A stretch of 64,000 nt of DNA, taken from Nemertoderma westbladi. Its lineage: Eukaryota > Animalia > Xenacoelomorpha. Made by a program: the position numbers and the translations under genes. Positions 747 through 42,709 of this stretch are shown here, in pieces (within the stretch, counting starts at the first letter, position 1; each line of letters opens with the position of its first letter). The stretch lies in contig JAUCBJ010006295.1 of the NCBI GenBank assembly GCA_032718475.1, forward strand, positions 11,370-75,369, read 5' to 3'. The notes beneath the pieces were generated by a model. That model was not told the DNA's origin. It was given only the letters and a program-made list of their open reading frames with translations, and did not search any database.

Positions 747-3700
747 AGAACACTCCAAGGTTGGTTGGTGATGTTCTTACAGAAAGTCAGGGGGTAGTAG
801 AACACGCCAAGGTTGGTTGGTGCTGTACTTACAGAGAGTCAGGGGGTAGTAGAACACTCCAAGGTTGGTTGGTGCTGTACTTACAAAAGGTCAGGGGGTA
901 GTAGAACACTCCACGTTTGGTTGGTGTTGTACTTACAGAGAGTCAGGGGGTAGTAGAACACTCCAAGGTTGGTTGGTGCTGTACTTACAGAGAGTCAGGG
1001 GGTAGTAGAACACTCCAAGGTTGGTTGGTGCTGTACTTACAAAAGGTCAGGGGGTAGTAGAACACTCCACGTTTGGTTGGTGTTGTACTTACAGAGAGTC
1101 AGGGGGTAGTAGAACACTCCAAGGTTGGTTGGTGCTGTACTTACAGAAAGTCAGGGGGTAGTAGAACACTCCAAGGTTGGTTGGTGCTGTACTTACAGAG
1201 AGTCAGGGGGTAGTAGAACACTCCAAGGTTGGTTGGTGTTGTACTTACAGAGAGTCAGGGGGTAGTAGAACACTCCAAGGTTGGTTGGTGCTGTACTTAC
1301 ATAAAGTCAGGGGGTAGTAGAACACTCCAAGGTTGGTTGGTGCTGTACTTACAGAGAGTCAGGGAGTAGTAGAACACTCCAAGGTTGGTTGGTGCTGTTC
1401 TTACAGAGTCAGGGGGTAGTAGAACACTCCAAGGTTGGTTGGTGCTGTACTTACAGAAAGTCAGGGGGTAGTAGAACACTCCAAGGTTGGTTGGTGCTGT
1501 ACTTACAGAGAGTCAGGGGGTAGTAGAACACTCCAAGGTTGGTTGGTGTTGTACTTACAGAGAGTCAGGGGGTAGTAGAACACTCCAAGGTTGGTTGGTG
1601 CTGTACTTACATAAAGTCAGGGGGTAGTAGAACACTCCAAGTTTGGTTGGTGCTGTACTTACAGAGAGTCAGGGAGTAGTAGAACACTCCAAGATTGGTT
1701 GGTGTTGTACTTACAGAAAGTCAGGGGGTAGTAGAACACTCCAAGGTTGGTTGGTGCTGTACTTACAGAAAGTCAGGGGGTAGTAGAACACTCCAAGGTT
1801 GGTTGGTGCTGTACTTACAGAGAGTCAGGGAGTAGTAGAACACTCCAAGGTTGGTTGGTGTTGTACTTACAGAGAGTCAGGGGGTAGTAGAACACTCCAA
1901 GGTTGGTTGGTGCTGTTCTTACAGAGTCAGGGGGTAGTAGAACACTCCAAGGTTGGTTGGTGCTGTACTTACAGAAAGTCAGGGGGTAGTAGAACACTCC
2001 AAGGTTGGTTGGTGCTGTACTTACAGAGAGTCAGGGAGTAGTAGAACACTCCAAGGTTGGTTGGTGTTGTACTTACAGAGAGTCAGGGGGTAGTAGAACA
2101 CTCCAAGGTTGGTTGGTGCTGTATTTACAGAAAGTCAGGGGGTAGTAGAACACTCCAAGGTTGGTTGGTGCTGTACTTACAGAGAGTCAGGGGGTAGTAG
2201 AACACTCCAAGTTTGGTTGGTGCTGTACTTACAGAGAGTCAGGGGGTAGTAGAACACTCCACGTTTGGTTGGTGTTGTACTTACAGAGAGTCGGGGGGTA
2301 GTAGAACACTCCAAGGTTGGTTGGTGCTGTACTTACAGAAAGTCAGGGGGTAGTAGAACACTCCAAGGTTGGTTGGTGCTGTACTTACAGAGAGTCAGGG
2401 AGTAGTAGAACACTCCAAGGTTGGTTGGTGTTGTACTTACAGAAAGTCAGGGGGTAGTAGAACACTCCAAGGTTGGTTGGTGCTGTACTTACAGAGAGTC
2501 AGGGAGTAGTAGAACACTCCAAGGTTGGTTGGTGTTGTACTTACAGAGAGTCAGGGGGTAGTAGAACACTCCAAGGTTGGTTGGTGCTGTATTTACAGAA
2601 AGTCAGGGAGTAGTAGAACACTCCAAGGTTGGTTGGTGCTGTATTTACAGAAAGTCAGGGGGAAGTAGAACACTCCAAGGTTGGTTGGTGCTGTACTTAC
2701 AGAGAGTCAGGGAGTAGTAGAACACGCCAAGGTTGGTTGGTGCTGTACTTACAGAGAGTCAGGGAGTAGTAGAACACTCCAAGGTTGGTTGGTGCTGTAT
2801 TTACAGAAAGTCAGGGGGTAGTAGAACACTCCAAGGTTGGTTGGTGTTGTACTTACAGAGAGTCAGGGGGTAGTAGAACACTCCAAGGTTGGTTGGTGCT
2901 GTATTTACAGAAAGTCAGGGGGTAGTAGAACACTCCAAGGTTGGTTGGTGCTGTACTTACAGAGAGTCAGGGGGTAGTAGAACACTCCAAGTTTGGTTGG
3001 TGCTGTACTTACAGAGAGTCAGGGGGTAGTAGAACACTCCAAGGTGGTTGGTGCTGTACTTACAGAAAGTCAGGGGGTAGTAGAACACTCCAAGGTTGGT
3101 TGGTGCTGTATTTACAGAAAGTCAGGGGGTAGTAGAACACTCCAAGGTCGGTTGGTGCTGTACTTACAGAGAGTCAGGGGGTAGTAGAACACTCCAAGTT
3201 TGGTTGGTGCTGTACTTACAGAGAGTCAGGGGGTAGTAGAACACTCCAAGGTGGTTGGTGCTGTACTTACAGAAAGTCAGGGGGTAGTAGAACACGCCAA
3301 GGTTGGTTGGTGCTGTACTTACAGAAAGTCAGGGGGTAGTAGAACACGCCAAGGTTGGTTGGTGCTGTACTTACAGAGAGTCAGGGGGTAGTAGAACACT
3401 CCACGTTTGGTTGGTGCTGTACTTACAGAAAGTCAGGGGGTAGTAGAACACTCCAAGGTTGGTTGGTGCTGTACTTACAGAAAGTCAGGGGGTAGTAGAA
3501 CACTCCAAGGTTGGTTGGTGCTGTACTTACAGAGAGTCAGGGAGTAGTAGAACACTCCAAGGTTGGTTGGTGTTGTACTTACAGAAAGTCAGGGGGTAGT
3601 AGAACACTCCAAGGTTGGTTGGTGCTGTACTTACAGAGAGTCAGGGAGTAGTAGAACACTCCAAGGTTGGTTGGTGTTGTACTTACAGAGAGTCAGGGGG

Positions 3701-4140
3701 TAGTAGAACACTCCAAGGTTGGTTGGTGCTGTATTTACAGAAAGTCAGGGAGTAGTAGAACACTCCAAGGTTGGTTGGTGCTGTATTTACAGAAAGTCAG
3801 GGGGTAGTAGAACACTCCAAGGTGGTTGGTGCTGTACTTACAGAAAGTCAGGGGGTAGTAGAACACGCCAAGGTTGGTTGGTGCTGTACTTACAGAGAGT
3901 CAGGGGGTAGTAGAACACTCCAAGTTTGGTTGGTGCTGTACTTACAGAGAGTCAGGGGGTAGTAGAACACTCCAAGGTGGTTGGTGCTGTACTTACAGAA
4001 AGTCAGGGGGTAGTAGAACACGCCAAGGTTGGTTGGTGCTGTACTTACAGAGAGTCAGGGGGTAGTAGAACACTCCAAGGTTGGTTGGTGCTGTACTTAC
4101 AGAGAGTCAGGGGGTAGTAGAACACTCCAAGGTTGGTTGG
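747..4140. repeat. 52-bp minisatellite, about 65 copies; unit = 40 nt of LRRC71 exon 4 end + 12 nt of donor/intron
   Basis: Minus-strand unit CCAACCAACCTTGGAGTGTTCTACTACCCCCTGACTCTCT|GTAAGTACAGCA. Confidence 0.97.
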
Positions 4141-4250
4141 AACCGTCCAGCGGAGAAGCCTCCACTGATAGGTTTCGTAGATTCTCGCACTGACTTAGAA
4201 CGCTGCCCATTAAAGTTAAGGTCTCCTTCGTAAGTCCAACATTCCATAAA
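4101..4250 (-). CDS. LRRC71: LRRC71 coding exon 4 (last 40 nt are the first unit of the 52-bp array)
   Basis: tttcag| acceptor; LWNVGLTKETLTLMGSVLSQCENLRNLSVEASPLDGSNQPWSVLLPPDS; donor CT|gtaagt; phase 2/2 fits both neighbours. Confidence 0.9.
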
Positions 4251-4747
4251 CTGAAAATGAATGGCAACGTGATTAATTAATATTCTTCGTGAAAAATTCG
4301 GAATAATTTTCTTTAGAGAGCGAATAAGAGTTTTTCTGAAAGTTTCTGTGTCGCATCTTCATATTAGCAAAAACGAGCCAATATCAGTTAAATCGTCCCG
4401 GAACTCGGAATATTACATAGGAGTGGACATCGAACAGGCATGCGGTACAGTTAGGCTGGGGTCACAACTTTGAGCTTTCAACTTTTAATTAAAAGATTGA
4501 ACACAGTGTATGGAGAGATGTTCACACATAAACAAAACGGTCAACTTTAGACTTCCAAAACGCAACTTTCAACATTCACCGTTAGTCATATGTTCTATCT
4601 TACTTGAAAGTTGAAAGCTGGCCTTTCTAGCATTATTGACAGAAGTAATGTTTATAAAATTATAGCAGCTACCTGTGAACTGCTACAGTATATAAAATTG
4701 ACGATTTGGTGGGAACGATTTTGTGCTGTTGCTGTAGTGTCGGAATC

Positions 4748-6872: not shown

Positions 6873-7090
6873 CTTAAGGTGTGGAGTTTATTCATTGCAG
6901 GCAAGGTTTGGTTAAGAACTTCTCCCATTTTTGTATCAATCTTCCACCCTCGAATAGATACGCATGTAATGATGGTTTTCTTTTCTTCGATTTCCGTTTC
7001 TATTTGCACTCGCGGCAATAAATAGTCGTAAGAATCCTTGAGTACGTATGTTTTAGGAACAGGATCCACAGGCGTTCCATCTTTATTTAA
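6873..7090 (-). CDS. LRRC71: LRRC71 coding exon 3
   Basis: ttttag| acceptor, AG|gtaaac donor; YDYLLPRVQIETE...VSIRGWKID resembles LRRC71 YVFFRPTIQVELE...IYIRGWKVE; phases fit both neighbours. Confidence 0.9.
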
Positions 7091-7671
7091 CTAAAACAAA
7101 CAAATGAACGCCCGTGTACAGTATATATTTACTTCATTTTCAGTAAGACGTACACTCCAGCCAAATAAATGCTGTACAGGTACATCAATAGTAACTATTA
7201 CAGTTGTTAGTACACCATAATACAGTATGTATTTACAGTGCGAATCTGTGATCTGATCTTTGGTTCCAGGACAAAGATTCGTATCGCATGGGCATGGGAC
7301 ATTATTATAACCAAAACAATAAACGAGAGTTTAATATAACAGGTTACAGTTAAATCATTTTACGGGACGATTCGGCGTCACTCAAAGCACTTTCGGACTG
7401 TCTCATTCGAACGTTCGAGCCAATATCAGATCGAACGGGTCCAGAGAGATTTAATTAATTAATTTAATTAATTATTAATGAAATTATTAGTCTTATGAAA
7501 GTTTCTTATATGATGAATACTTAAGTTTGTCACCTTGTGGTTTTTTAATCAAAGCTAAAATTTTTATTATTATTATTTATTACTGTATACTGTACTCATC
7601 ATTACTATGGCTGAATTAAATTTCATTGAGATTGGGAAACTTATATGTCTATACTGTACCTTATACCTTAA

Positions 7672-8405: not shown

Positions 8406-9192
8406 ATGGGATTACCTCCACTAATATTCTATCTAAAACTCATCATATTCCTTACTATTCATTTATCCCGTTTCATAATAACGACAGAACGAATTGGCAA
8501 CCACCACGAGCACGAACATACCACCGGTACCGGTGACGATTATTTACTGCCGTACCCACGATTTCTCAGATCCACAAACAATTTCGAAAGTGGAGAAAGC
8601 AGGAATGAGCCACGAACTCGAAACATAAGGGACGTAGACCTACCGGTATACAAAAACATCGATAATAATTCATCCATCAATACCCGTAGGCCTATATTCG
8701 ATTGGAATATTACTTACGGTGTTGATGATTTCTACACTTCCGGTACCGGTACCGATAACGGAACTACCGATGATTTCAATTCGACGACCACCCCCGAGGT
8801 CTGCCCAATCGTATCGCTTAACGGTGATTACGAATCGATAATTACAAATATAGGCGAACGTCCCTCTGTCTCCACTCATCATCTTATTTGGGACAATATT
8901 GGTATGCGGGATTATATGCCGCAGACACTATACGGTAGGATAGGCGTGGTTAGCAACCCCTCCCGGACTCTGTCCGTACTCGAGCCGGGCGGTTTGGGTG
9001 GATGCGCCATCCAGCGGCGGGTCCCAGTATCGGACACCGCCCGCGGCTGTTTGTTCGCTATAAACGCGGGTTTCTATAACGTCGACACCGGTGAATGTGT
9101 CGGTAATGTTGTGTCGGAAGGTCGGATAGTTCATAAGTCGTACCATAGTAACCCACACTTCGGAGTTAAAAGTGACGGAACAATATTTATAG
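8406..9192 (+). CDS. NAGPA: NAGPA (uncovering enzyme) exon 1
   Basis: Hydrophobic N-terminus, DDYLLPYP motif, RNIR furin-like site, RTLSVLEPGGLGGC and AINAGFY motifs; donor G|gtaagt. Confidence 0.92.
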
Positions 9193-9459
9193 GTAAGTTA
9201 TAATTATTTATTATCGGAGCGGGACATTGGAAATTGATGCTTTTCCCAGGTTGGAATTCATGCATGTGCGCGCAGGTATGCGTCCGTGTTTTGCAGCATG
9301 AATTCCAACCTGGTAGCTTTTCCAGCTTCGAGGGAATTAGTAAATTTGGTGTTGTGAACTGATGTGGAAATAGAAACATAAAATTAATTAATTATAACTA
9401 AATTATTGTTTGTATTAATTGTCTTAGTTTCGGCGTTTGTAACTATTTTCTCTACGCAG

Positions 9460-10673
9460 GTTATTTGAGCGAAGAAATAATAACCGATACAGTAAATCCG
9501 TTTACTAATCTAGTCGGTGGGGTTGTCTGGCTAGTTAGAAACGGCGCGAGTTACGTGGGCGAGAGTCTGCGAGTCGAGTGTAGGGAGGCGGAGTCCACGG
9601 GCTCGTTGTACGAGTTCGCGAGTGTCCGGAGCGCTCGGACGGCGCTCGGTGTGGACGCCAGGGGGCGCGCGGTAACGGTAACCGTCGAGGGTCGAACCGG
9701 GTTCCGCGGGATCGATCTTTGGGACTTCGCCGAGTTCCTGATCGCTCGCGGAGTCGTAAACGCGATAAACCTCGACGGCGGGGGTTCGGTGACGAGCGTA
9801 GTGAACGGGACGCTGGTTGGTTACCCGAGCGACGCGTGCGGGGAGTTTAACTGCGAGCGTGCGGTCTCTACCGTGGTGTGCGTCCGCAACGCGAGTTGTT
9901 TACACGATTGCTACGGTAACGGGGAGTGCGTGAACGGGGAGTGCGTGTGTTCTACTTACTTTACGGGGGAGTTGTGCAGCCGGTTGGATTGCTCGGCGGC
10001 TGGGCACTGCTCGGGGCGGGGTGTCTGCACCCCCGGGGGGTGTCGGTGCGGTCCGGGGTGGTCCGGGGGCGACTGCGACACCGCGTGCGTCGCCGGTCGC
10101 TACGGCGACGGCTGCGGCCGCGAGTGCGACTGCGGGAGCAGCGGGAAGTGCGACCGGTTCACCGGCGCGTGTAGCTGCGCCGACGGGTGGGAGGGCGCGC
10201 ACTGCGACCGGAGGTGCTCCCCCGGTCGCTACGGGGACCGGTGCAACGCGACGTGCGACTGCGTGGGCGCGTGCGACTGCGACCCGGTCGACGGGAGCTG
10301 CCGGTCCGACACTCCCAGCTACTCCTCCTACTCCCAATGCCGCGTCGAGCAGCTGATAACCCGACGGCATTTAGTCCGATATAAACACGAAGCCCCCGAC
10401 TATTGGCTCCTCCTTACGATTCCTCTCCTCGTGAGTTTGGCGTTTAATTTCGCCGCGTTTCTCGAACTCTTTAACTCTTGTAGGACTAAGTGTTACAGAC
10501 GTAGGAGTCGGTTTAGGTCCGTTCTACTCAGTAAATCTAATAATAAATCCTCCGCCGAAGATAAAAGTTTAATAAATAACGACGGAGACGATGAATCTTC
10601 GGATACCGACATCGAGATTTACTTTAAGGGATACAAACAATCCCAAGAGAATAGAAACGCTTTCCATTTCTAA
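9460..10673 (+). CDS. NAGPA: NAGPA exon 2 (catalytic C-half, EGF-like repeats, TM helix, cytoplasmic tail); 666 aa in total
   Basis: acgcag|GT TAT TTG gives FIGYLSEE; GVVWLVRNG, SARTALG, NAINLDGGGS and YPSD motifs; Cys-rich EGF/laminin-like repeats; TM segment YWLLLTIPLLVSLAFNF; several AATAAA downstream. Confidence 0.95.
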
Positions 10674-11129
10674 TTGAAACTAATTAGTTGGTTTTATTTA
10701 CAAGATATTCCTAAAATAAAGTAGGAAATTAAAGTGATTATTTAGTGAACTTTATATGATAACCACCTGATTTGTCTTCCGATACGCCAGTGACTTTATA
10801 TTATAATAAATCAGCGATATTTTTGAGAATTAAAAATAAATAATATAAAACATGAGTTTGAGTTTGAGACCCCGACACAACAATTTAATTGCGTTTCCTA
10901 TTATTAACTAATTAACTTCGACTAATTATCGCATTCCTCCACATATTTTAGCCTTTAAACTAAAAAAACTTCGCAATTCAATATATTTTTGTGTTTCCGC
11001 TGAATTAATTACAATTTTCATTCCATTTATATTTTTGGTGCAAATAGTATATTTTTGCCATTAGCTAGTTTTTTGGCTTTTAAACCCGGAATCGGATAAA
11101 GTGAGAGTCTAATCTTTTTCTATCCTTTA

Positions 11130-14100
11130 ACTAACTGAGACACAGGTTGGTTCTCTATGACTCCCACCTAATGTGTTACTAACTGAGACACAGGTTGGTT
11201 CTCTATGACTCCCACCTAATGTGTTACTAACTGAGACACAGGTTGGTTCTCTATGACTCCCATCTAATGTGTTACTAACTGAGACACAGGTTGGTTCTCT
11301 ATGACTCCCACCTAATGTGTTACTAACTGAGACACAGGTTGGTACTCTATGACTCCCACCTAATGTGTTACTAACTGAGACACAGGTTGGTTCTCTATGA
11401 CTCACACCTAATGTGTTACTAACTGAGACACAGGTTGGTTCTCTATGACTCACACCTAATGTGTTACTAACTGAGACACAGGTTGGTTCTCTATGACTCC
11501 CACCTAATGTGTTACTAACTGAGACACAGGTTGGTTCTCTATGACTCCCACCTAATGTGTTACTAACTGAGACACAGGTTGGTTCTCTATGACTCACACC
11601 TAATGTGTTACTAACTGAGACACAGGTTGGTTCTCTATGACTCACACCTAATGTGTTACTAACTGAGACACAGGTTGGTTCTCTATGACTCACACCTAAT
11701 GTGTTACTAACTGAGACACAGGTTGGTTCTCTATGACTCCCACCTAATGTGTTACTAACTGAGACACAGGTTGGTTCTCTATGACTCCCACCTAATGTGT
11801 TACTAACTGAGACACAGGTTGGTTCTCTATGACTCACACCTAATGTGTTACTAACTGAGACACAGGTTGGTTCTCTATGACTCCCACCTAATGTGTTACT
11901 AACTGAGACACAGGTTGGTTCTCTATGACTCCCACCTAATGTGTTACTAACTGAGACACAGGTTGGTTCTCTATGACTCCCACCTAATGTGTTACTAACT
12001 GAGACACAGGTTGGTTCTCTATGACTCACACCTAATGTGTTACTAACTGAGACACAGGTTGGTTCTCTATGACTCACACCTAATGTGTTACAAACTGAGA
12101 CACAGGTTGGTTCTCTATGACTCCAACCTAATGTGTTACTAACTGAGACACAGGTTGGTTCTCTATGACTCACACCTAATGTGTTACTAACTGAGACACA
12201 GGTTGGTTCTCTATGACTCCCACCTAATGTGTTACTAACTGAGACACAGGTTGGTTCTCTATGACTCCCACCTAATGTGTTACTAACTGAGACACAGGTT
12301 GGTTCTCTATGACTCACACCTAATGTGTTACTAACTGAGACACAGGTTGGTTCTCTATGACTCACACCTAATGTGTTACTAACTGAGACACAGGTTGGTT
12401 CTCTATGACTCCCACCTAATGTGTTACTAACTGAGACACAGGTTGGTTCTCTATGACTCCCACCTAATGTGTTACTAACTGAGACACAGGTTGGTTCTCT
12501 ATGACTCACACCTAATGTGTTACTAACTGAGACACAGGTTGGTTCTCTATGACTCCCACCTAATGTGTTACTAACTGAGACACAGGTTGGTTCTCTATGA
12601 CTCCCACCTAATGTGTTACTAACTGAGACACAGGTTGGTTCTCTATGACTCCCACCTAATGTGTTACTAACTGAGACACAGGTTGGTTCTCTATGACTCA
12701 CACCTAATGTGTTACTAACTGAGACACAGGTTGGTTCTCTATGACTCACACCTAATGTGTTACTAACTGAGACACAGGTTGGTTCTCTATGACTCACACC
12801 TAATGTGTTACTAACTGAGACACAGGTTGGTTCTCTATGACTCACACCTAATGTGTTACTAACTGAGACACAGGTTGGTTCTCTATGACTCCCACCTAAT
12901 GTGTTACTAACTGAGACACAGGTTGGTTCTCTATGACTCCCACCTAATGTGTTACTAACTGAGACACAGGTTGGTTCTCTATGACTCCCACCTAATGTGT
13001 TACTAACTGAGACACAGGTTGGTTCTCTATGACTCACACCTAATGTGTTACTAACTGAGACACAGGTTGGTTCTCTATGACTCCCACCTAATGTGTTACT
13101 AACTGAGACACAGGTTGGTTCTCTATGACTCCCACCTAATGTGTTACTAACTGAGACACAGGTTGGTTCTCTATGACTCCCACCTAATGTGTTACTAACT
13201 GAGACACAGGTTGGTTCTCTATGACTCACACCTAATGTGTTACTAACTGAGACACAGGTTGGTTCTCTATGACTCCCACCTAATGTGTTACTAACTGAGA
13301 CACAGGTTGGTTCTCTATGACTCCCACCTAATGTGTTACTAACTGAGACACAGGTTGGTTCTCTATGACTCCCACCTAATGTGTTACTAACTGAGACACA
13401 GGTTGGTTCTCTATGACTCACACCTAATGTGTTACTAACTGAGACACAGGTTGGTTCTCTATGACTCACACCTAATGTGTTACTAACTGAGACACAGGTT
13501 GGTTCTCTATGACTCACACCTAATGTGTTACTAACTGAGACACAGGTTGGTTCTCTATGACTCCCACCTAATGTGTTACTAACTGAGACACAGGTTGGTT
13601 CTCTATGACTCCCACCTAATGTGTTACTAACTGAGACACAGGTTGGTTCTCTATGACTCACACCTAATGTGTTACTAACTGAGACACAGGTTGGTTCTCT
13701 ATGACTCACACCTAATGTGTTACTAACTGAGACACAGGTTGGTTCTCTATGACTCCCACCTAATGTGTTACTAACTGAGACACAGGTTGGTTCTCTATGA
13801 CTCACACCTAATGTGTTACTAACTGAGACACAGGTTGGTTCTCTATGACTCCCACCTAATGTGTTACTAACTGAGACACAGGTTGGTTCTCTATGACTCA
13901 CACCTAATGTGTTACTAACTGAGACACAGGTTGGTTCTCTATGACTCCCACCTAATGTGTTACTAACTGAGACACAGGTTGGTTCTCTATGACTCCCACC
14001 TAATGTGTTACTAACTGAGACACAGGTTGGTTCTCTATGACTCCCACCTAATGTGTTACTAACTGAGACACAGGTTGGTTCTCTATGACTCACACCTAAT

Positions 14101-23468: not shown

Positions 23469-23674
23469 CTCTACAGCCGTTACCATGGGTTGTGACGGCT
23501 CGGTTTTGCCCCCTCGCTTTCTATCCTGCCCCCCTTTCCCCCCCTTCTCGTCTGCGGCGGGGGGACTGCCTGGCGGTTTAGTTCTCAGTACAACGGGGGG
23601 AATCTCGATGTATCCCGCTCTTCTACAAACCTCCGGGAAATCCACCTCCAGGTTACCAGTGCAGATGTATGGTT
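23469..23674 (-). CDS. LRRC71: LRRC71 coding exon 2
   Basis: tag| acceptor, GAG|gtgagt donor; EPYICTGNLEVDFPEVCRRAGYIEIPPVV resembles the recalled human [22 protein letters not shown] motif. Confidence 0.85.
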
Positions 23675-29632: not shown

Positions 29633-29733
29633 ATGGTGCAGTTTGATAATATAGTTTATCAGCCCCGCCAATACAGAGGGTTACAAAATGAGATGCAATG
29701 TCTGCAGAGAAGGCGCCAATTGAGACAATTAAG
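29633..29733 (+). CDS. SPATA48: SPATA48/SPMIP7-like coding exon 1
   Basis: Strong Kozak accaccATGG; MVQFDNIVYQPRQYRGLQNEMQCLQRRRQLRQL; AG|gtgaat; phase 2 fits exon 2. Confidence 0.7.
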
Positions 29734-30127: not shown

Positions 30128-30234
30128 ATTTCCGGTTTTGAGGGGCGACTATGATCAGCCGAAGCGGTTCACAGACCGACAGAGAGGGGCGTTTATACGG
30201 CTACCGTCCAGCGCACCGCATAGAGACGATCCAG
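30128..30234 (+). CDS. SPATA48: SPATA48-like exon 2 (last 15 nt seed the 29-bp array)
   Basis: tttctag|...FPVLRGDYDQPKRF...PHRDDP G|gtaggt; joins exon 3 as RDDPGVIDPVSGYV, resembling recalled SPATA48 RDDVPLVDPCSGFV. Confidence 0.85.
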
Positions 30235-33200
30235 GTAGGTAGCAACCAATATAGACAACCCAGGTATGTAGCAACGAGACGAACCAGGTAGGTAACAACC
30301 AATAGAGACAACCCAGGTGGGTAGCAACCAATAGAGACGATCCAGGTAGGTAGCAACCAATAGAGACAACCCAGGTAGGTAGCAACCTATAGAGACAACC
30401 CAGGTAGGTAGGTACCAATAATAGAGACGATCCTGGTAGGTAGCAACCAATAGAGACGACCCAGGTAGGTAGCAACCAATAGAGACAACCCAGGTAGGTA
30501 GCAACCAATAGAGACGACCCAGGTAGGTAGCAACCAATAGAGACGACCCTGGTAGGTAGCAACCAATAGAGACGACCCTGGTAGGTAGCAACCAATAGAG
30601 ACGACCCTGGTAGGTAGCAACCAATAGAGACGACCCTGGTAGGTAGCAACCAATAGAGACGACCCTGGTAGGTAGCAACCAATAGAGACGACCCTGGTAG
30701 GTAGCAACCAATAGAGACGACCCTGGTAGGTAGCAACCAATAGAGACGACCCTGGTAGGTAGCAACCAATAGAGACGACCCTGGTAGGTAGCAACCAATA
30801 GAGACGACCCTGGTAGGTAGCAACCAATAGAGACGACCCTGGTAGGTAGCAACCAATAGAGACGACCCTGGTAGGTAGCAACCAATAGAGACGACCCTGG
30901 TAGGTAGCAACCAATAGAGACGACCCTGGTAGGTAGCAACCAATAGAGACGACCCTGGTAGGTAGCAACCAATAGAGACGACCCTGGTAGGTAGCAACCA
31001 ATAGAGACGACCCTGGTAGGTAGCAACCAATAGAGACGACCCTGGTAGGTAGCAACCAATAGAGACGACCCTGGTAGGTAGCAACCAATAGAGACGACCC
31101 TGGTAGGTAGCAACCAATAGAGACGACCCTGGTAGGTAGCAACCAATAGAGACGACCCTGGTAGGTAGCAACCAATAGAGACGACCCTGGTAGGTAGCAA
31201 CCAATAGAGACGACCCTGGTAGGTAGCAACCAATAGAGACGACCCAGGTAGGTAGCAACCAATAGAGACGACCCAGGTAGGTAGCAACCAATAGAGACGA
31301 CCCAGGTAGGTAGCAACCAATAGAGACGACCCTGGTAGGTAGCAACCAATAGAGACGACCCTGGTAGGTAGCAACCAATAGAGACGACCCTGGTAGGTAG
31401 CAACCAATAGAGACGACCCTGGTAGGTAGCAACCAATAGAGACGACCCAGGTAGGTAGCAACCAATAGAGACGACCCAGGTAGGTAGCAACCAATAGAGA
31501 CGACCCAGGTAGGTAGCAACCAATAGAGACGACCCTGGTAGGTAGCAACCAATAGAGACGACCCTGGTAGGTAGCAACCAATAGAGACGACCCTGGTAGG
31601 TAGCAACCAATAGAGACGACCCAGGTAGGTAGCAACCAATAGAGACGACCCTGGTAGGTAGCAACCAATAGAGACGACCCTGGTAGGTAGCAACCAATAG
31701 AGACGACCCTGGTAGGTAGCAACCAATAGAGACGACCCTGGTAGGTAGCAACCAATAGAGACGACCCAGGTAGGTAGCAACCAATAGAGACGACCCAGGT
31801 AGGTAGCAACCAATAGAGACGACCCAGGTAGGTAGCAACCAATAGAGACGACCCTGGTAGGTAGCAACCAATAGAGACGACCCTGGTAGGTAGCAACCAA
31901 TAGAGACGACCCTGGTAGGTAGCAACCAATAGAGACGACCCTGGTAGGTAGCAACCAATAGAGACGACCCTGGTAGGTAGCAACCAATAGAGACGACCCT
32001 GGTAGGTAGCAACCAATAGAGACGACCCTGGTAGGTAGCAACCAATAGAGACGACCCTGGTAGGTAGCAACCAATAGAGACGACCCTGGTAGGTAGCAAC
32101 CAATAGAGACGACCCAGGTAGGTAGCAACCAATAGAGACGACCCAGGTAGGTAGCAACCAATAGAGACGACCCTGGTAGGTAGCAACCAATAGAGACGAC
32201 CCAGGTAGGTAGCAACCAATAGAGACGACCCTGGTAGGTAGCAACCAATAGAGACGACCCAGGTAGGTAGCAACCAATAGAGACGACCCAGGTAGGTAGC
32301 AACCAATAGAGACGACCCAGGTAGGTAGCAACCAATAGAGACGACCCAGGTAGGTAGCAACCAATAGAGACGACCCTGGTAGGTAGCAACCAATAGAGAC
32401 GACCCTGGTAGGTAGCAACCAATAGAGACGACCCTGGTAGGTAGCAACCAATAGAGACGACCCTGGTAGGTAGCAACCAATAGAGACGACCCTGGTAGGT
32501 AGCAACCAATAGAGACGACCCAGGTAGGTAGCAACCAATAGAGACGACCCAGGTAGGTAGCAACCAATAGAGACGACCCTGGTAGGTAGCAACCAATAGA
32601 GACGACCCTGGTAGGTAGCAACCAATAGAGACGACCCAGGTAGGTAGCAACCAATAGAGACGACCCTGGTAGGTAGCAACCAATAGAGACGACCCTGGTA
32701 GGTAGCAACCAATAGAGACGACCCAGGTAGGTAGCAACCAATAGAGACGACCCAGGTAGGTAGCAACCAATAGAGACGACCCAGGTAGGTAGCAACCAAT
32801 AGAGACGACCCAGGTAGGTAGCAACCAATAGAGACGACCCTGGTAGGTAGCAACCAATAGAGACGACCCTGGTAGGTAGCAACCAATAGAGACGACCCAG
32901 GTAGGTAGCAACCAATAGAGACGACCCAGGTAGGTAGCAACCAATAGAGACGACCCTGGTAGGTAGCAACCAATAGAGACGACCCTGGTAGGTAGCAACC
33001 AATAGAGACGACCCAGGTAGGTAGCAACCAATAGAGACGACCCAGGTAGGTAGCAACCAATAGAGACGACCCAGGTAGGTAGCAACCAATAGAGACGACC
33101 CTGGTAGGTAGCAACCAATAGAGACGACCCAGGTAGGTAGCAACCAATAGAGACGACCCTGGTAGGTAGCAACCAATAGAGACGACCCAGGTAGGTAGCA

Positions 33201-35272
33201 ACCAATAGAGACGACCCAGGTAGGTAGCAACCAATAGAGACGACCCAGGTAGGTAGCAACCAATAGAGACGACCCAGGTAGGTAGCAACCAATAGAGACG
33301 ACCCTGGTAGGTAGCAACCAATAGAGACGACCCTGGTAGGTAGCAACCAATAGAGACGACCCTGGTAGGTAGCAACCAATAGAGACGACCCTGGTAGGTA
33401 GCAACCAATAGAGACGACCCAGGTAGGTAGCAACCAATAGAGACGACCCTGGTAGGTAGCAACCAATAGAGACGACCCAGGTAGGTAGCAACCAATAGAG
33501 ACGACCCAGGTAGGTAGCAACCAATAGAGACGACCCAGGTAGGTAGCAACCAATAGAGACGACCCAGGTAGGTAGCAACCAATAGAGACGACCCTGGTAG
33601 GTAGCAACCAATAGAGACGACCCAGGTAGGTAGCAACCAATAGAGACGACCCTGGTAGGTAGCAACCAATAGAGACGACCCTGGTAGGTAGCAACCAATA
33701 GAGACGACCCTGGTAGGTAGCAACCAATAGAGACGACCCTGGTAGGTAGCAACCAATAGAGACGACCCAGGTAGGTAGCAACCAATAGAGACGACCCTGG
33801 TAGGTAGCAACCAATAGAGACGACCCTGGTAGGTAGCAACCAATAGAGACGACCCTGGTAGGTAGCAACCAATAGAGACGACCCTGGTAGGTAGCAACCA
33901 ATAGAGACGACCCTGGTAGGTAGCAACCAATAGAGACGACCCTGGTAGGTAGCAACCAATAGAGACGACCCTGGTAGGTAGCAACCAATAGAGACGACCC
34001 TGGTAGGTAGCAACCAATAGAGACAACCCAGGTGGGTAGCAACCTATAGAGACAACCCAGGTAGGTAGGTACCAATAATAGAGACGATCCTGGTAGGTAG
34101 CAACCAATAGAGACGACCCAGGTAGGTAGCAACCAATAGAGACAACCCAGGTAGGTAGCAACCAATAGAGACGACCCAGGTAGGTAGCAACCAATAGAGA
34201 CGACCCTGGTAGGTAGCAACCAATAGAGACGACCCTGGTAGGTAGCAACCAATAGAGACGACCCTGGTAGGTAGCAACCAATAGAGACGACCCTGGTAGG
34301 TAGCAACCAATAGAGACGACCCTGGTAGGTAGCAACCAATAGAGACGACCCTGGTAGGTAGCAACCAATAGAGACGACCCTGGTAGGTAGCAACCAATAG
34401 AGACGACCCAGGTAGGTAGCAACCAATAGAGACGACCCAGGTAGGTAGCAACCAATAGAAACGACCCAGGTAGGTAGCAACCAATAGAGACGACCCAGGT
34501 AGGTAGCAACCAATAGAGACGACCCAGGTAGGTAGCAACCAATAGAGATGATCCAGGTAGGTAGCAACCAATAGAGACGACCCTGGTAGGTAGCAACCAA
34601 TAGAGACGACCCAGGTAGGTAGCAACCAATAGGGACGACCCAGGTAGGTAGCAACCAATAGAGACGACCCAGGTAGGTAGCAAGGAGACGAACCAGGTAG
34701 GTAGCAACGAGACGAACCAGGTAGGTAGCAACCAATAGAGACGACCCAGATAGGTAGCAACCAATAGAGACGACCCAGGTAGGTAGCAACCAATAGAAAC
34801 GACCCAGGTAGGTAGCAACCAATAATAGAGACGATCCTGGTAGGTAGCAACCAATAGAGACGACCCAGGTAGGTAGCAACCAATAGAGACGACCCAGGTA
34901 GGTAGCAACCAATAGAGACGACCCTGGTAGGTAGCAACCAATAGAGACGACCCAGGTAGGTAGCAACCAATAGGGACGACCCAGGTAGGTAGCAACCAAT
35001 AGAGACGACCCAGGTAGGTAGCAAGGAGACGAACCAGGTAGGTAGCAACGAGACGAACCAGGTAGGTAGCAACCAATAGAGACGACCCAGATAGGTAGCA
35101 ACCAATAGAGACGACCCAGGTAGGTAGCAACCAATAGAGACGACCCAGGTAGGTAGCAACCAATAGAGACGACCCAGGTAGGTAGCAACCAATAGAAACG
35201 ACCCAGGTAGGTAGCAACCAATAGAGACGACCCAGGTAGGTAGCAACCAATAGAGACGACCCAGGTAGGTAG
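30220..35272. repeat. 29-bp minisatellite, about 174 copies; unit = 15 nt of exon end + 14 nt of donor/intron
   Basis: Unit ATAGAGACGACCC(A/T)G|GTAGGTAGCAACCA. Confidence 0.97.
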
Positions 35273-35347
35273 AACCACTGTACAACACAGTAATTTAATA
35301 AGAGACTCAGAGCGCTGCAATGACACAATGTCTGTTTATAATTTTAG

Positions 35348-35486
35348 GAGTAATAGACCCTGTATCGGGTTATGTGGCCCCTGCAGGTGAAGTTGAGATG
35401 GAGACTGGAAGAGGTCCGATGGAGTCTTTCAAGTGTTACGATAACACACCCCAGTCAACCACACCACAAACAATGCAAGATTACAG
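35348..35486 (+). CDS. SPATA48: SPATA48-like exon 3
   Basis: ttttag|GA...VIDPVSGYVAPAGEVEMETGRG...QDY AG|gtggga; phases 1/2. Confidence 0.85.
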
Positions 35487-36996
35487 GTGGGAAGGACTCA
35501 TTGCTCTTTGTGAATATGGTAGAACAGAACACCCCATCTGATATTTTCGATTTTCATAGATTTTGGTTGAATGAACATTAAGTAGAGTTCTACAGTATGT
35601 GGTCATTCTTTCCAGCCGTTACAGCAGTTTCGCACAATAAATTAACCCAATTTTTCTTTCATTCCTGTATAGAAATCTCTGATATGATAGAATACCATTT
35701 CTTAATATCGTCTGTAAAAACGCAAAAGGGCATTTATGGATGCGATGGATAATTTGATGGCAAAAGGCAAAAGGGCATTTGATGGTGCCATCAATTTAGT
35801 ACCGGTATAACATAACCCTGTTTTAATCCGCTTAAATCACTTTCGTTCCTCTAGCATCCCGTAGTTTGATATTTCTGAAGGTAATATACAGGTTTTCAAG
35901 GTCGCTGATCACGATGAAACTAATTATCAATATTTATGGTAATACAATCTCAATTTTGGTGCCATTCTGGTGCCCCAAAACGTAAAGTACAATTAGCAAA
36001 AAATTGCAAACTTTTAAATTTCACCTTTGGTTTGCTAATTCTGAAGAGATACTGGTTTTCAAGCGCGCTGATCGCGATACAACTCGTTAAAAATCATTCG
36101 TGTAACGCAACTATCGTTTTTGGTGCTTGTCTGGTGGGACGTAAAAACGTAAAATACAAGTAGCATAAAATTTCAAACGGCAAAAATCGAATTTGGTTGA
36201 TTAATAATATTTTCTAGTGTCATATTCGTGATCAGCGTCCGAGAAAACCCCTAATGTCTTAAAACTAGGTTGATTTGGTAATGGTTTTTATTTTCAAATT
36301 AGTGCTACTTGTATTTTTCGAGCTGCGCATTGACACATATCCAAAAATTCCCTAACCAACAAGGTACGATATATTTCAGTGTCATATTCGTGATCAGTAT
36401 CCCATGAAACCAATTTTATTTACAATAAAATCAATTTGATTTTGTGGTGATTTTTCATTTTCATACACCAAAATATAGTGTCATATTTCAGTGACCCACC
36501 ACCCCCCCCCCCCCCCCCCCCTTATTTTTTACTACAAATCTTAATGAGATTGCATGAAATTTGAAACATAGATAGTTTCACCTCCCGACCATGCAACATT
36601 TGAACGCCCATATCTCAGCTATTTTTCAACGAAATTCAAATTGTGTCATTCGTATAAAATGTAACGTAAAATCATTCGTGTAACGCAACTATCGTTTTTG
36701 GTGCTTGTCTGGTGGGACGAATAATACAAGTAGCATAAAATTTCAAACGGCAAAAATCGAATTTGGTTGGTTTCATCGTATTCTTTTTATCGTAATGTTT
36801 CCCTGTCCACTACAAATTTTTCACATGTTAATATTTTAGCAGTCCTCAATAAAATTGCTGCTAAAAAAAATGAACTCAAGACAACTTACCTAGTATTATT
36901 TTTTCGCGTTTATCTGTCTGCTTGGCTGCCTCACTATCTGTGTTTTTTATGTTTCCTTTAACACACCGACACTTCCTTCAATTTGGCTTTTGGCGA

Positions 36997-38272
36997 TTGT
37001 TGTACCTCTTTATAAAAAAAAAAGGCGATGTTTGCAATCCCTATAATTACCGACCTATCTCACTCACATGTATAGCATGTAAAATCATGGAAATGTGTGT
37101 GAAAAAGGACCTTATAACATATTTACGTGCTCATAATTTGATTTCCAAGGCCCAGCACGGCTTTCTAGAACGTAAATCTACGTGCAGTCAATTACTAGAG
37201 TGTATTAATGATTGGTACAATATATTAGAGTGCAGCAGTAGTTCCAGTACTCCTCTATGGGAGTCCATGCTGGGCTCTTACTGCTGAGGACACCAAATCT
37301 CTGGATGGCACATTCACAAGAATGCTACGCCGGGTTCATTGTGTCAAGTACAATGCACACATCTACAACCAGACAATATATAACATTGGAGGTATCTCAT
37401 TGGTTCCCCCAAGCTTGGCACTAGAACAAAGTCGCCTCCGCTTTGCAGGACATTGCTTTCGCCGTGAGGACCAGCCAGTGCATAATCTTGTACTTTGGCA
37501 GCCTCATGGAGTGAATAAGCATGGTGGACAGCCGATGACTTAATTGAGACGCATCTTAAAGGACACTGGCCTTGAAGATGCGGATGATCTAGCAAATGTC
37601 ATGGGTGATAAGGAGTTTTGGCGGCGCAATTTTGTCGACAAGCCGGCACAGCATTCTTAAAAATGCAGCTGCAATGCAGCATGCCGATCTAGTAGTACAA
37701 TATATTAGATAACCGGGGCAATCTCAACTCTCTAAATCACACTCTAAAATATTATGTAAGCTTTCTGCTTATGGGATATCGGGAGACTTATTAGCTTGGC
37801 TGGGTGCCTTTTTCTCAGATCGAACCCAAAGCGTCCTCGTTGGAAATGAATTCTCTCCTAAGACGAGAGTTATATCTGGCACGGTACAGGGCAGTGTTCT
37901 GAGCCCAACAATATTCTTACTTTTTACAAATGATCTTCCCGATATCCTCGATGCAGTCTCTGTTAAACTTTTCGCAGATGATGTAAAATTGTACTCCAAT
38001 TCTACCGATCTCAATAAACTAACTCACCCTCGCAACACTAAATAATTGGGCCCGCGAGTGGCAGCTTACTATTGCTGCACACAAATGTGCTGTTATCCAC
38101 ATAGGTAATAATATAATATTATGCACTGTTCTTACAAATTAAACGATTCTGTTATCATTAGTGGCAATTCGTGTAGTGAATTAGGACTAATCGTCCAGAA
38201 TGACCTCAAATTTAATCAATTATGCAAAAAACAAACCGCCAAGGCGTATAGAATAATAAATATATGCTTGAT
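36997..38272 (+). mobile_element. Decayed CR1/L2-type LINE reverse transcriptase, interrupted by an RTE insertion
   Basis: KKGD..NPYNYRPISLTCIACKIME, QHGF, SGTVQGSVLSPTIFLLFTNDLP, KLFADDVKLY motifs. Confidence 0.9.
37230..37694 (+). mobile_element. 5'-truncated RTE-clade LINE with a 15-bp target-site duplication
   Basis: VLLYGSPCWALT..LDGTFTRMLRR..RLRFAGHCFR..LVLWQP; flanked by gtacaatatattaga at 37215-37229 and 37695-37709; short TAG-repeat tail. Confidence 0.9.
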
Positions 38273-38340
38273 ACTGATTGAAGTCTTTCATTGCGGTTCG
38301 TTTTACTACTTTTCTAAGTTGGCTAGCGGTTCCGTTACAG

Positions 38341-38489
38341 GCCTACATCCGCCGGGACGGAGACTACACCAGGGGTTGTTCCGGAAAGGATACAACGATC
38401 CAAGACGGACCTCGTTACCAGTCGCGTACTCAGCTGGAAGGACAGATCCCCGACCCAGTCGGTTCTACGCGGAAAAATAATATGTTCAG
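38341..38489 (+). CDS. SPATA48: SPATA48-like exon 4
   Basis: ttacag|G...PTSAGTETTPGVVPERIQRSKT...IICS G|gtgagt; open frame and phases 2/1 fit both neighbours; low sequence conservation. Confidence 0.7.
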
Positions 38490-39047
38490 GTGAGTCGAGT
38501 TCGTCTGTCATAAAATAGTTCTAACTAAACAACCGTATAATTCCTTTAAGTCCTATAATCTAACACTTTATCTATCTAACCAGTCTATCTAACTATATGA
38601 TTTTATTTTAACACGCCTCGACTAGAAATCTCACATAGCTACTTGGGGTGGGAGTATGTATAATTTGAATAGATTAGAAAATTTAAATATTATTTTTTTA
38701 TATGTAAAAAAAAAAAAAACCTTTAACCTATTCTATAGTAGTCACGGGCTCATTATTCGAAAATAAAAGTAAATTTAATAACATCATAAATAGCTTTAAT
38801 CGCTATTAAGTTTACTTTAATTATGTTGTGCTCTACTAGTAGCTCTAATAGTTCATATAAATTGTTGGTTTTAATATTTAGTTTACTACCAGACGGCTAC
38901 TATCGGGGGACTACAACAGTAGTCAGGGCGTGGTGGGCTACACTGTCATAGAAACCGTTCAGATAGTTGATGTTTTGCACAGCATATGGAGGTGGTTTAA
39001 GCCTCATTATCGAATGTTCTACTGTACCATTCTTTTTATTTGTCTAG

Positions 39048-39186
39048 GTTCAGTCGACAAGCGACCAACGTCAGGTAATTCAGAAGGCGAAGTGGCCAAG
39101 GATATAGTGAAGACTCCAGAAGAAGGCTCGATCGCCTGGCGGGATAAAACAGCGTTAAAATATATGTATACCAGTGAGACACAAGC
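39048..39186 (+). CDS. SPATA48: SPATA48-like exon 5 (last 31 nt seed the 46-bp array)
   Basis: tgtctag|GT...WRDKTALKYMYTSETQ GC|gtgagt; the YTSxTQ motif continues into exon 6. Confidence 0.85.
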
Positions 39187-41344
39187 GTGAGTTACTGGAG
39201 CTAAAATATATGTATACTAGTGAGACACAAGCGTGAGTGACTGGAGCTAAAATATATGTATACTAGTGAGACACAAGCGTGAGTTACTAGAGCTAAAATA
39301 TATGTATACCAGTGAGACACAAGCGTGAGTTACTGGAGCTAAAATATATGTATACTAGTGAGACACAAGCGTGAGTGACTGGAGCTAAAATATATGTATA
39401 CCAGTGAGACACAAGCGTGAGTTACTGGAGCTAAAATATATGTATACCAGTGAGACACAAGCGTGAGTTACTGGAGCTAAAATATATGTATACTAGTGAG
39501 ACACAAGCGTGAGTGACTGGAGCTAAAATATATGTATACCAGTGAGACACAGGCGTGAGTGACTGGAGCTAAAATATTGTGTACCAGTGAGACACAAGCG
39601 TGAGTGACTGGAGCTAAAATATATGTATACCAGTGAGACACAAGCGTGAGTTACTGGAGCTAAAATATATGTATACCAGTGAGACACAAGCGTGAGTTAC
39701 TGGAGCTAAAATATATGTATACTAGTGAGACACAAGCGTGAGTGACTGGAGCTAAAATATATGTATACCAGTGAGACACAGGCGTGAGTGACTGGAGCTA
39801 AAATATTGTATACCAGTGAGACACAAGCGTGAGTTACTGGAGCTAAAATATATGTATACCAGTGAGACACAAGCGTGAGTTACTGGAGCTAAAATATATG
39901 TATACCAGTGAGACACAAGCGGGAGTGACTGGAGCTAAAATATTTGTATACCAGTGAGACACAAGCGTGAGTGACTGGAGCTAAAATATTTGTATACCAG
40001 TGAGACACAAGCGTGAGTTACTGGAGCTAAAATATATGTATACCAGTGAGACACAAGCGTGAGTGACTGGAGCTAAAATATATGTATACTAGTGAGACAC
40101 AAGCGTGAGTTACTGGAGCTAAAATATATGTATACTAGTGAGACACAAGCGTGAGTGACTGGAGCTAAAATATATGTATACTAGTGAGACACAGGCGTGA
40201 GTGACTGGAGCTAAAATATATGTATACCAGTGAGACACAAGCGTGAGTTACTGGAGCTAAAATATATGTATACCAGTGAGACACAAGCGTGAGTTACTGG
40301 AGCTAAAATATATGTATACCAGTGAGACACAAGCGTGAGTTACTGGAGCTAAAATATATGTATACCAGTGAGACACAAGCGTGAGTTACTGGAGCTAAAA
40401 TATATGTATACTAGTGAGACACAAGCGTGAGTGACTGGAGCTAAAATATATGTATACCAGTGAGACACAAGCGTGAGTTACTGGAGCTAAAATATATGTA
40501 TACCAGTGAGACACAAGCGTGAGTTACTGGAGCTAAAATATATGTATACCAGTGAGACACAAGCGTGAGTTACTGGAGCTAAAATATATGTATACTAGTG
40601 AGACACAAGCGTGAGTGACTGGAGCTAAAATATATGTATACCAGTGAGACACAAGCGTGAGTTACTGGAGCTAAAATATATGTATACCAGTGAGACACAA
40701 GCGTGAGTTACTGGAGCTAAAATATATGTATACTAGTGAGACACAAGCGTGAGTGACTGGAGCTAAAATATATGTATACTAGTGAGACACAAGCGTGAGT
40801 GACTGGAGCTAAAATATATGTATACTAGTGAGACACAAGCGGGAGTGACTGGAGCTAAAATATTTGTATACCAGTGAGACACAAGCGTGAGTGACTGGAG
40901 CTAAAATATATGTATACCAGTGAGACACAAGCGTAAGTTACTGGAGCTAAAATATATGTATACCAGTGAGACACAAGCGTGAGTGACTGGAGCTAAAATA
41001 TATGTATACCAGTGAGACACAAGCGTGAGTTACTGGAGCTAAAATATATGTATACCAGTGAGACACAAGCGTGAGTGACTGGAGCTAAAATATATGTATA
41101 CTAGTGAGACAGAGGCGTGAGTGACTGGAGCTAAAATATATGTATACTAGTGAGACACAAGCGTGAGTTACTGGAGCTAAAATATATGTATACCAGTGAG
41201 ACACAAGCGTGAGTTACTGGAGCTAAAATATATGTATACTAGTGAGACACAAGCGTGAGTTACTGGAGCTAAAATATATGTATACTAGTGAGACACAAGC
41301 GTGAGTGACTGGAGCTAAAATATATGTATACCAGTGAGACACAA
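39156..41344. repeat. 46-bp minisatellite, about 47 copies; unit = 31 nt of exon end + 15 nt of donor/intron
   Basis: Unit TAAAATATATGTATAC(C/T)AGTGAGACACAAGC|GTGAGT(T/G)ACTGGAGC. Confidence 0.97.
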
Positions 41345-41591
41345 CGGCCACGGCCAAGTACTGTAGGGATGAGCACAGTGGCAGCAGATGATGGTATGAC
41401 AGATGGGTGGCCATGAGGAGGTAAATTGCGGACATGATACAAGGTATCAGATAGTATTTCCATGTCTATCTTTTATCTGGGCCGCTAGCTGAATGGTTAG
41501 AGCGTCATGCTTCCAACCCGGAGGTCACCAGTTCGATCCCACCTGGACGTCATTGCCGTCTTTGCAAAAGCTGTGCCCAACAAAAAGTTAT
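41345..41591 (+). mobile_element. Insertion containing a tRNA-derived SINE-like segment, in the last unit of the 46-bp array
   Basis: A box TAGCTGAATGG and B box GTTCGATCC at about 41486-41540; agtgagacacaa on both sides (41333-41344, 41592-41603), after which the unit resumes. Confidence 0.6.
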
Positions 41592-41661
41592 AGTGAGACA
41601 CAAGTGTGACTGACTGGAGAAAAAATTATTTATCCTTAAATCTTATTATTTACTTATTTAG

Positions 41662-42709
41662 TAGAGCTTACATTATTTATCATTAGAGCTTGCATTATTT
41701 ATCATTAGAGCTTACATTTATTTATCATTAGAGCTTACATTATTTATTGATAGAGCTTACATTATTTATCATTAGAGCTTACATTATTTATCATTAGAGC
41801 TTACATTTATTTATCATTAGAGCTTACATTATTTATCATTGGAGCTTACAATTATTTATCATTTTAGCTTACATTATTTATCATTAGAGCTTACACTATT
41901 TATCTTTAGAGCTTACATTATTTATCATTGGCGCTTACAATTATTTATTGATAGAGCTTACATTTATCATTCGAGTTTACATTATTTATCATTGGAGCTT
42001 ACAATTATTTATCATTTGAGCTTACAAGTATTTATCATTAGAACGTACAATTATTTATCATTAGAGCTTACATTATGTATCATTAGAGCTTATATTTATT
42101 TATCATTATCGAGCTTACAATTATTTATCATTAGAGCTTACATTATTTATTGATAGAGAGATTACATTATTTATTGATAGAGAGATTACATTTATTTATC
42201 ATTAGAGCTTACATTATTTATCATTAGAGCTTACACTATTTATCTTTAGAGCTTACATTATTTATCATTGGCGCTTACAATTATTTATTGATAGAGCTTA
42301 CATTTATCATTCGAGTTTACATTATTTATCATTGGAGCTTACAATTATTTATCATTTGAGCTTACAAGTATTTATCATTAGAACGTACAATTATTTATCA
42401 TTAGAGCTTACATTATGTATCATTAGAGCTTATATTTATTTATCATTATCGAGCTTACAATTATTTATCATTAGAGCTTACATTATTTATTGATAGAGAG
42501 ATTACATTTATTTATCATTAGAGCTTACATTATTTATCATTAGAGCTTACAATTATTTATCTTTAGAGCTTACATTATTTATCATTAGAGCTTACATTTA
42601 TTTATTATTAGAGCTTACATTATTTATCACTAGAGCTTACATTTATTTATTATTAGAGATTACATTATTTATCACTAGAGCTTACATATATTTATTATTA
42701 GAGCTTACA
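41662..42709. repeat. About 22-bp minisatellite, about 46 copies; unit = 3' splice site + first 7 nt of exon 6
   Basis: Unit attatttatcattag|AGCTTAC; the last copy is the acceptor at 42700-42701. Confidence 0.93.

Follow-up and report, generated by a model that had tools for sequence, protein, structure and literature searches.

Kilobase minisatellites straddling splice sites in two genes of a 64-kb stretch of Nemertoderma westbladi DNA

In a stretch of 64,000 bases of Nemertoderma westbladi DNA (contig JAUCBJ010006295.1 of assembly GCA_032718475.1, positions 11,370 to 75,369; hereafter the window, with positions counted from its first base), introns of two genes are largely occupied by minisatellites built from copies of their own splice sites. 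Tandem Repeats Finder, applied to the whole window, identifies ten arrays of at least 1 kb, which cover 27,593 of the 64,000 bases (43% minisatellite). When these calls are set against gene models consisting of open frames joined by GT..AG introns, four of the ten straddle a splice site, i.e. three donors and one acceptor. One lies in a leucine-rich-repeat (LRR) gene on the minus strand, and three are found in a homologue of SPMIP7/SPATA48 on the plus strand, including a pair at both ends of a single intron, with a 46-bp repeat at the donor end and a 22-bp repeat at the acceptor end. Since three of the four share one gene, and two of these occupy opposite ends of one intron, the four are not fully independent. 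The original prediction, made from the sequence, that arrays with units of 52, 29 and 46 bp cross donors and one with units of about 22 bp crosses an acceptor, in two genes on opposite strands, is borne out. The four are probably ‘mirage’ minisatellites, which lengthen introns and are likely neutral, and which began as duplications of 22–52 bases at exon edges and grew by unequal exchange while the exon-touching copy continued to be spliced. The kind of repeat is already known; novelty could lie only in a possible genome-wide bias of tandem amplification towards splice junctions, at which the local crowding hints.

All four arrays (Table 1) consist of head-to-tail units in which exon bases and intron bases from a single boundary are combined. 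As had been claimed, the exon-overlapping copy is terminal in every case and the additional copies are intronic. The arrays take up 96% (52-bp array) and 99% (29-bp array) of the host intron, and 91% of the intron shared by the 46-bp and 22-bp arrays. If only a single unit of every array is counted, the three introns measure 148, 84 and 345 bases, the last figure including a 246-base insertion, in which ARAGORN finds no tRNA gene, and a relic copy of the 46-bp unit; about 300 non-repeat bases separate the two arrays of this intron. The copies, 94–96% identical in the donor arrays, carry ordered variants. The four units were predicted to be unrelated, and six pairwise shuffle tests agree (smallest p 0.019, uncorrected). 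Shared descent of the 22-bp unit and the 46-bp unit was considered and rejected, as the similarity is weak (p 0.04 on one strand, 0.23 on both strands).

The choice among these copies was followed in assembled contigs of three DNA runs (X1–X3) and two RNA-type runs (X4 and X5). The latter two, neither of which is on record as RNA, were treated as such on the basis of spliced joints that are absent from the DNA runs, the comparison with DNA having been made at the SPMIP7 introns. Such contigs drop rare forms and show the major forms only. A 1,683-base contig of X4 joins 35346–35480, 38335–38487 and 39046–39186 over GT..AG skips of 2,854 and 558 bases, neither of which is shown by X1–X3. Its match ends exactly at 39186, though the compared stretch ran to 39200, which indicates that the first donor of the 46-bp array is used; the remaining 1,057 bases of the contig fit the next three exons and 580 bases of the last one, which is consistent with, and not proof of, a direct join. 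In the LRR gene, a 1,779-base contig of X4 covers 4101–4250 and 6873–7092 and stops at 4101. In X5, which belongs to another study, the 30 loose letters preceding 4101 are those of window positions 581–610, which makes a direct join of the first 52-bp donor (4101) to the next exon (610). On the question of which copy is used, raised with the original prediction, the contigs, limited as they are to the major forms, take the first, authentic donor in both the 52-bp and the 46-bp array.

The authentic donor of the 29-bp array and the authentic acceptor of the 22-bp array would be the sites favoured by protein homology, for which 18 of 33 homologues (those of at least 300 residues) were aligned. 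All 18 run across the 39186/42702 junction without a gap. At the 30234/35348 junction the motif is kept without a gap in 13 of the 18, with one gapped, one dissimilar and three without the region. The DNA contigs of the three runs, which represent two samples, either of them possibly the source of the window, break at 39185, and the depth climbs from 16–32 to 331–804 in the bin that holds the 46-bp unit; the break together with the jump in depth indicates that this array is present in the DNA and is not an artefact of assembly. Estimation of copy number from contig depth was abandoned, as two runs of one sample differ several-fold. One contig of X5 has 4140 as its first base, precisely where the sequence common to the exon and the 52-bp array sets in, as a graph fork produced by array-containing molecules would bring about; the simpler reading is a gap in coverage at 4141–4214.

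The arrays present the spliceosome with dozens of near-identical sites, as had been envisaged, but the intact spare sites number about 62, 172, 45 and 31, and not 45–175. Including the true site, the 52-bp array holds 63 donor-like sites, all with GT and 50 with the authentic 11-mer; the 29-bp array holds 175 (173 with GT, 78 authentic and 91 weakened to CTG|GT, the commonest variant); and the 46-bp array holds 48 (46 with GT, 24 authentic). The 22-bp array contains 32 YAG acceptor sites, of which 31 are spare. Read-through past the authentic donors of the 52-, 29- and 46-bp arrays meets a stop after 1, 5 and 1 bases, respectively, so that any downstream donor gives a premature stop. The spare acceptors also lead to stops in 31 of 31 cases, 13 in frame and 18 by frameshift. 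In the intron with two arrays the donor copies precede the acceptor copies, and therefore no pseudo-exon is defined there. Of the units in the 52-bp array, 43 contain an AG...GT module of 42 bases that lacks stops and keeps the frame, and so could serve as a cassette of 14 residues; none of these was seen in the contigs, in which rare forms are dropped. Each 22-bp unit carries CTTAC, presumably a branch-point-like word, about 17 bases before the next AG, and the spare acceptors may therefore be complete 3′ splice sites.

The number of straddling arrays was compared with a null model in which each array is collapsed to one unit, 28 splice sites are considered and seeds internal to exons are excluded. 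Against an expectation of 0.31 among ten arrays, four were observed, with a probability of four or more of 1.6e-4 and a local excess of about 13-fold; within the two genes, four of seven arrays straddle a splice site against 0.40 expected (P 2.7e-4). These P values, uncorrected for that choice, come from one window picked for its odd pattern among very many, and unannotated exons would raise the expected count. Weighting the seeds by GC content leaves 0.20–0.38 straddling arrays expected, and GC-biased seeding was accordingly rejected as the cause. Were the rate at exon edges five-fold higher, 1.3 would be expected (P 0.03), and with a ten-fold rate 2.2 (P 0.15). To account for the local excess, seeding or growth would have to be some 5–10 times as common at exon edges as elsewhere, unless this window is a lucky draw. 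One of the causes originally proposed, preferential tolerance of duplications that span junctions, fails at this point: tolerance alone cannot give the excess, because purely intronic duplications are equally tolerated and exon-internal seeds are already excluded from the null. Two regularities were noticed after the fact: the intron part of the unit measures 12–15 bases in all four arrays, and the affected introns, once collapsed, rank 1, 2 and 6 of 14 in length (P 0.019).

As to the origin of the arrays, the first step was probably a local duplication of 22–52 bases across an exon edge; seeds lying wholly in exons would be purged, and those with their extra copies in the intron would survive. 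Growth likely proceeded by unequal exchange in which blocks of many copies were transferred. Within the arrays, runs of 5–14 units (369, 250, 303 and 405 bases) recur exactly and without overlap, and there is a higher-order period of 340 bp; the arrays have thus grown several units at a time, the pattern expected of unequal exchange. Amplification has also hit other local DNA, such as the tail of a high-copy dispersed element (22135) and, at 25013, a unit with inverted copies of itself on its flanks. In splicing, the first donor would win by 5′-to-3′ oriented selection, as in human F7, and the last acceptor by exon definition, while leaked transcripts, which carry stops, would be removed by nonsense-mediated decay. 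In eight single-frame genomic fragments of other organisms, one of which clusters with smelt SPMIP7, similarity breaks off at the site of the 39186/42702 intron, the only intron compared in this way. This loss indicates an old intron that predates the arrays, and with at least one intron ancient and non-repeat remainders retained, the arrays would have lengthened introns and not given birth to them.

Several results weigh against this account. Were arrays placed purely at random and tolerated, 0.31 of them and not four would straddle a splice site, a gap that GC weighting leaves in place. The loss of rare forms from the contigs leaves room for low-level use of spare sites, and in human 6-16 and CBS the two pseudo-sites closest by are used as well (PMC1557585). 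Exact microhomology was sought at the unit breakpoints of the 29-bp and 46-bp arrays and not found. In the two donor arrays of SPMIP7, six of 11 distinct variants in the exon part are synonymous (expected 0.16–0.24, P 0.004–0.03), a result that would not be expected under pure neutrality, and in each of these arrays the synonymous variants include the two commonest. This bias would fit exchange between the array and the exon copy, and is a lead only. The 52-bp array has no such bias (3 of 11), and over all arrays the count of 9 of 22 (P 0.03–0.13) is not significant when transitions are weighted.

Comparable repeats have been described elsewhere. The original prediction knew precedents only as single human cases, a view corrected by the lancelet, in which ‘mirage’ minisatellites are reported in Adh3, the globins BflGb6 and BflGb9, troponin C and PGBD5 (PMC3087553; PMC3902484). 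They cluster at donors and acceptors, have units of 10–160 bases, yield normal mRNA and are of an origin stated to be unclear; PGBD5 alone carries two (PMC3087553; PMC3902484). The present arrays resemble them in consisting of tandem copies of an exon-intron boundary, in affecting donors as well as acceptors and in occurring more than once per gene. They differ in size, with 47–175 copies over 1–5 kb against 2–7 copies in the lancelet globins and PGBD5, in filling 91–99% of the intron, and in the presence of one intron with an array at each end; the host, moreover, is not Branchiostoma, its SPMIP7 being 32% identical. In humans, donor-spanning minisatellites of 5–25 copies are found in F7 (intron 7, a 37-bp variable number tandem repeat), 6-16, CBS (intron 13), LMNB2 and PDGF (PMC1557585; PMC2630376). 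In F7, LMNB2 and PDGF the most upstream donor is used and splicing is normal, and the choice of the first donor in F7 was dissected experimentally, the pseudo-sites being functional yet not competing (PMC1557585). There, as here, the first unit spans the donor and identical pseudo-sites follow; the human loci, on the other hand, are isolated, with 5–25 copies, and the list in PMC1557585 includes no acceptor arrays. Minisatellites also alter exon-intron boundaries in human duplicated genes, with 27 intron modifications (PMC2812944). Those repeats have units of about 30 bases in about four copies and are often kept in exons or make new introns, whereas the genes studied here are old and single-copy and their kilobase arrays likely silent. 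PMC10078293 was set aside as a precedent, as it concerns repeats near splice sites and not a boundary-spanning anatomy. No genome-wide test of array enrichment at junctions was found in the literature searched, most subscription papers being outside its reach.

Where the arrays arise is a question apart from their neutrality, and a junction-directed birth or growth, in which a process linked to transcription, chromatin or splicing seeds or drives arrays at exon edges genome-wide, can hold together with it. We regard such a process as possible, with the odds somewhat against it. In genes transcribed in the germ line, candidate routes are breaks or flap-type duplications where nucleosomes are positioned on exons, and R-loops or pausing of the polymerase where splice sites lie. 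Besides the contrast of four of ten with 0.31, which a ten-fold exon-edge rate renders ordinary, the 12–15 intron bases in every unit and the length ranks of the collapsed introns speak in its favour, as does the membership of SPMIP7/SPATA48 in a spermatogenesis-associated family; the lancelet authors also suspected a general phenomenon (PMC3087553; PMC3902484). The window was chosen after the fact, however, and holds three of the arrays in one gene. None of 14 smaller arrays straddles a splice site, and none of the other 24 junctions has a decayed duplication (best score 24, against 42–60). The intron share of published units varies widely, with 33 of 37 bases in F7 (PMC1557585) and 7 of 31 in CBS (PMC2630376). 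Of the seeding at junctions that the original prediction proposed, the large local excess is upheld, and the particular routes are not supported: spliced mRNA is excluded as a template by the intron bases within the units, and nothing in the window points to R-loops or RNA templating.

The remaining explanations concern what the copies are for or whether they are real. Spare sites could be kept as regulatory decoys that divert transcripts into forms with premature stops, so that expression is tuned by array length. This is improbable: GT is kept in 63 of 63, 173 of 175 and 46 of 48 copies and all lead to stops, yet such retention is expected from the 94–96% identity anyway, stops behind GTAA or GTGA donors are ordinary, and the commonest 29-bp variant (91 of 175) weakens the donor. 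The X5 contig starting at 4140, as array-containing molecules would cause, also borders a coverage gap, and the major contigs use the authentic sites. It is still less plausible that introns are being born by tandem duplication as in the Rogers model (cited in PMC3087553), i.e. made from duplicated exon sequence or about to be subdivided. The 42-base AG...GT modules of the 52-bp array would suit it, and the lancelet authors proposed this route (PMC3087553; PMC3902484). The likeness to the model lies in a duplication that includes splice signals; each intron here, by contrast, keeps a unique non-repeat part (70, 136 and about 300 bases) that holds or separates the other splice site, the intron parts of the units do not match the start of the next exon, the position of the 39186/42702 intron is common to other animals, and X5 joins 4101 directly to 610. 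An assembly artefact or a wrong gene model is hardly credible. The copy numbers do derive from one assembly, of which the DNA runs containing the region may be the source, but DNA contigs from both samples end where the unit begins and show increased depth there, the copies carry ordered variants, and the exons are supported by spliced contigs of two studies and by homologues.

By themselves the four arrays change little, being a known type of repeat and likely silent, yet they are extreme in copy number and density, and the articles cited above offer no genome-wide rate for such repeats. If the 13-fold excess held genome-wide, the birth or growth of tandem repeats would depend on exon-intron structure, introns and the genome could expand quickly with no need of transposons, and a large natural test would exist of a spliceosome that ignores perfect decoys, including acceptors, where one-way upstream scanning would choose wrongly. 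More tentatively, and with the balance against it, the splice junctions of this animal may be genome-wide minisatellite hot spots at about ten times the background, with tiny ancestral introns (about 85–150 bases) inflated 25–60-fold by copies of their own splice sites, and with the exon-touching copy exchanging sequence with the array, which would place the arrays under indirect coding constraint. The origin of mirages and the choice of the first donor or last acceptor among up to 170 decoys would then be measurable at thousands of loci. Contigs break at such exon ends, which calls for caution among annotators and in short-read assembly.

Table 1. Coordinates of the junction-spanning arrays, their intron remainders and the exons of the two host genes
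Feature	Position	Strand	Composition or evidence
52-bp donor-spanning minisatellite	747..4140	-	65.4 copies; unit of 40 exon + 12 intron bases
First copy of 52-bp array	4140-4089	-	final 40 bases of the exon, then 12 of the intron
29-bp donor-spanning minisatellite	30220..35277	+	175.0 copies; 15 exon + 14 intron bases
46-bp donor-spanning minisatellite	39156..41344	+	47.6 copies; 31 exon + 15 intron bases
22-bp acceptor-spanning minisatellite	41662..42709	+	46.5 copies; 14 intron + 8 exon bases; 340-bp higher-order block
Non-repeat remainder with acceptor (136 bases), 52-bp array intron	611..746	-	
Non-repeat remainder with acceptor (70 bases), 29-bp array intron	35278..35347	+	
246-base insertion cutting distal end of 46-bp array	41345..41590	.	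part resembles tRNA-derived SINE by eye
Diverged relic copy of 46-bp unit	41591..41636	+	83% over 46 bases
LRR, predicted first coding exon	24396-24474	-	open frame + GT..AG
LRR, predicted exon 2	23469..23674	-	open frame + GT..AG only
LRR, upstream exon	6873..7090	-	spliced joint 4250/6873 in X4 and X5
LRR, exon with donor GT 4100-4099 (first copy of 52-bp array)	4101..4250	-	X4 contig + X5 join to 610
LRR, next exon	451..610	-	Pfam LRR_6, E 1.3e-10
LRR, further exon	1-178	-	runs off the window; open frame + GT..AG
SPMIP7, predicted first coding exon	29633..29733	+	open frame; homology from residue 12-25 on
SPMIP7, exon with donor GT 30235 (first copy of 29-bp array)	30128..30234	+	frame; gap-free homology in 13/18
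SPMIP7, exon	35348..35486	+	spliced X4 contig
SPMIP7, exon	38341..38489	+	spliced X4 contig
SPMIP7, exon with donor GT 39187 (first copy of 46-bp array)	39048..39186	+	X4 contig match ends at 39186
SPMIP7, exon with acceptor AG 42700-42701 (last copy of 22-bp array)	42702..42908	+	gap-free homology in 18/18; 33 matches
SPMIP7, last three coding exons	43542-43700, 44082-44192, 44424-44655	+	frame; weak Pfam SPATA48, E 0.023, 3.5e-4, 1.6e-6

The SPMIP7/SPATA48 homologue has nine exons between 29633 and 44655 on the plus strand. Its identity is indicated by a full-length match to a lancelet SPMIP7-like protein (E 1e-56 over 435 columns) and by Pfam PF15073, present in all nine homologues scanned, and it is about 32% identical to the lancelet and sea-urchin proteins. 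A second loss of similarity in genomic fragments of homologues follows a ‘WQ’ motif encoded within 42702–42908, which suggests an intron at this point in other animals, with none in this exon. In another intron of the gene, at 36874–38300, lies a decayed reverse-transcriptase element (Pfam RVT_1, in two pieces), which is interrupted by the high-copy element described below. The LRR gene runs on the minus strand from 24474 to beyond base 1. It may be LRRC71; homology searches gave only generic matches to LRRs of the ribonuclease-inhibitor type, or no match at all. Its largest intron, of 16.4 kb, contains a nested antisense gene for NAGPA (8406–10673, plus strand) with two exons and one intron of 267 bases, which is 37–53% identical to vertebrate, cnidarian and mollusc matches and is covered by X4 contigs in a patchy manner and at low depth.

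Elsewhere in the window, an intronless ArfGAP gene (54152–56047, minus strand), presumably AGFG1-like and possibly a retrogene, has about 15 copies of a 24-bp repeat in its coding sequence (PTGQPNAF-type, Pfam PT). A broken, frame-shifted stretch at 62950–63400 (plus strand) has a helicase Walker-A-like motif, and its pieces have no Pfam match; it resembles a processed pseudogene of DDX1. Long open frames within arrays, such as that of 1,494 codons in the 48-bp array at 11127–15611 (minus strand) and those of more than 1,700 codons on the minus strand of the 29-bp array, are probably due to chance in stop-free units. A further 22-bp array (22135–23229) follows on directly from the 3′ end of a truncated dispersed element with very many copies, of which another lies at about 37232–37689 and whose relatives end in TAG-repeat tails; this array may be read as a minisatellite born from a retroposon tail. 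The 55-bp array at 24803–26600 has inverted copies of its own unit on its flanks (unit at 25013), in the manner of a fold-back element or of a miniature inverted-repeat transposable element with an amplified subterminal repeat. A near-perfect palindrome of 123 bases (26961–27083) directly precedes a 45-bp C-rich array at 27098–28691. A fold-back structure of 4.7 kb occupies 57391–62117, where nested long inverted repeats surround 30-bp repeats, with 57391–57966 paired with 61510–62117 (90%) and 57974–58943 with 59289–60228 (84%).

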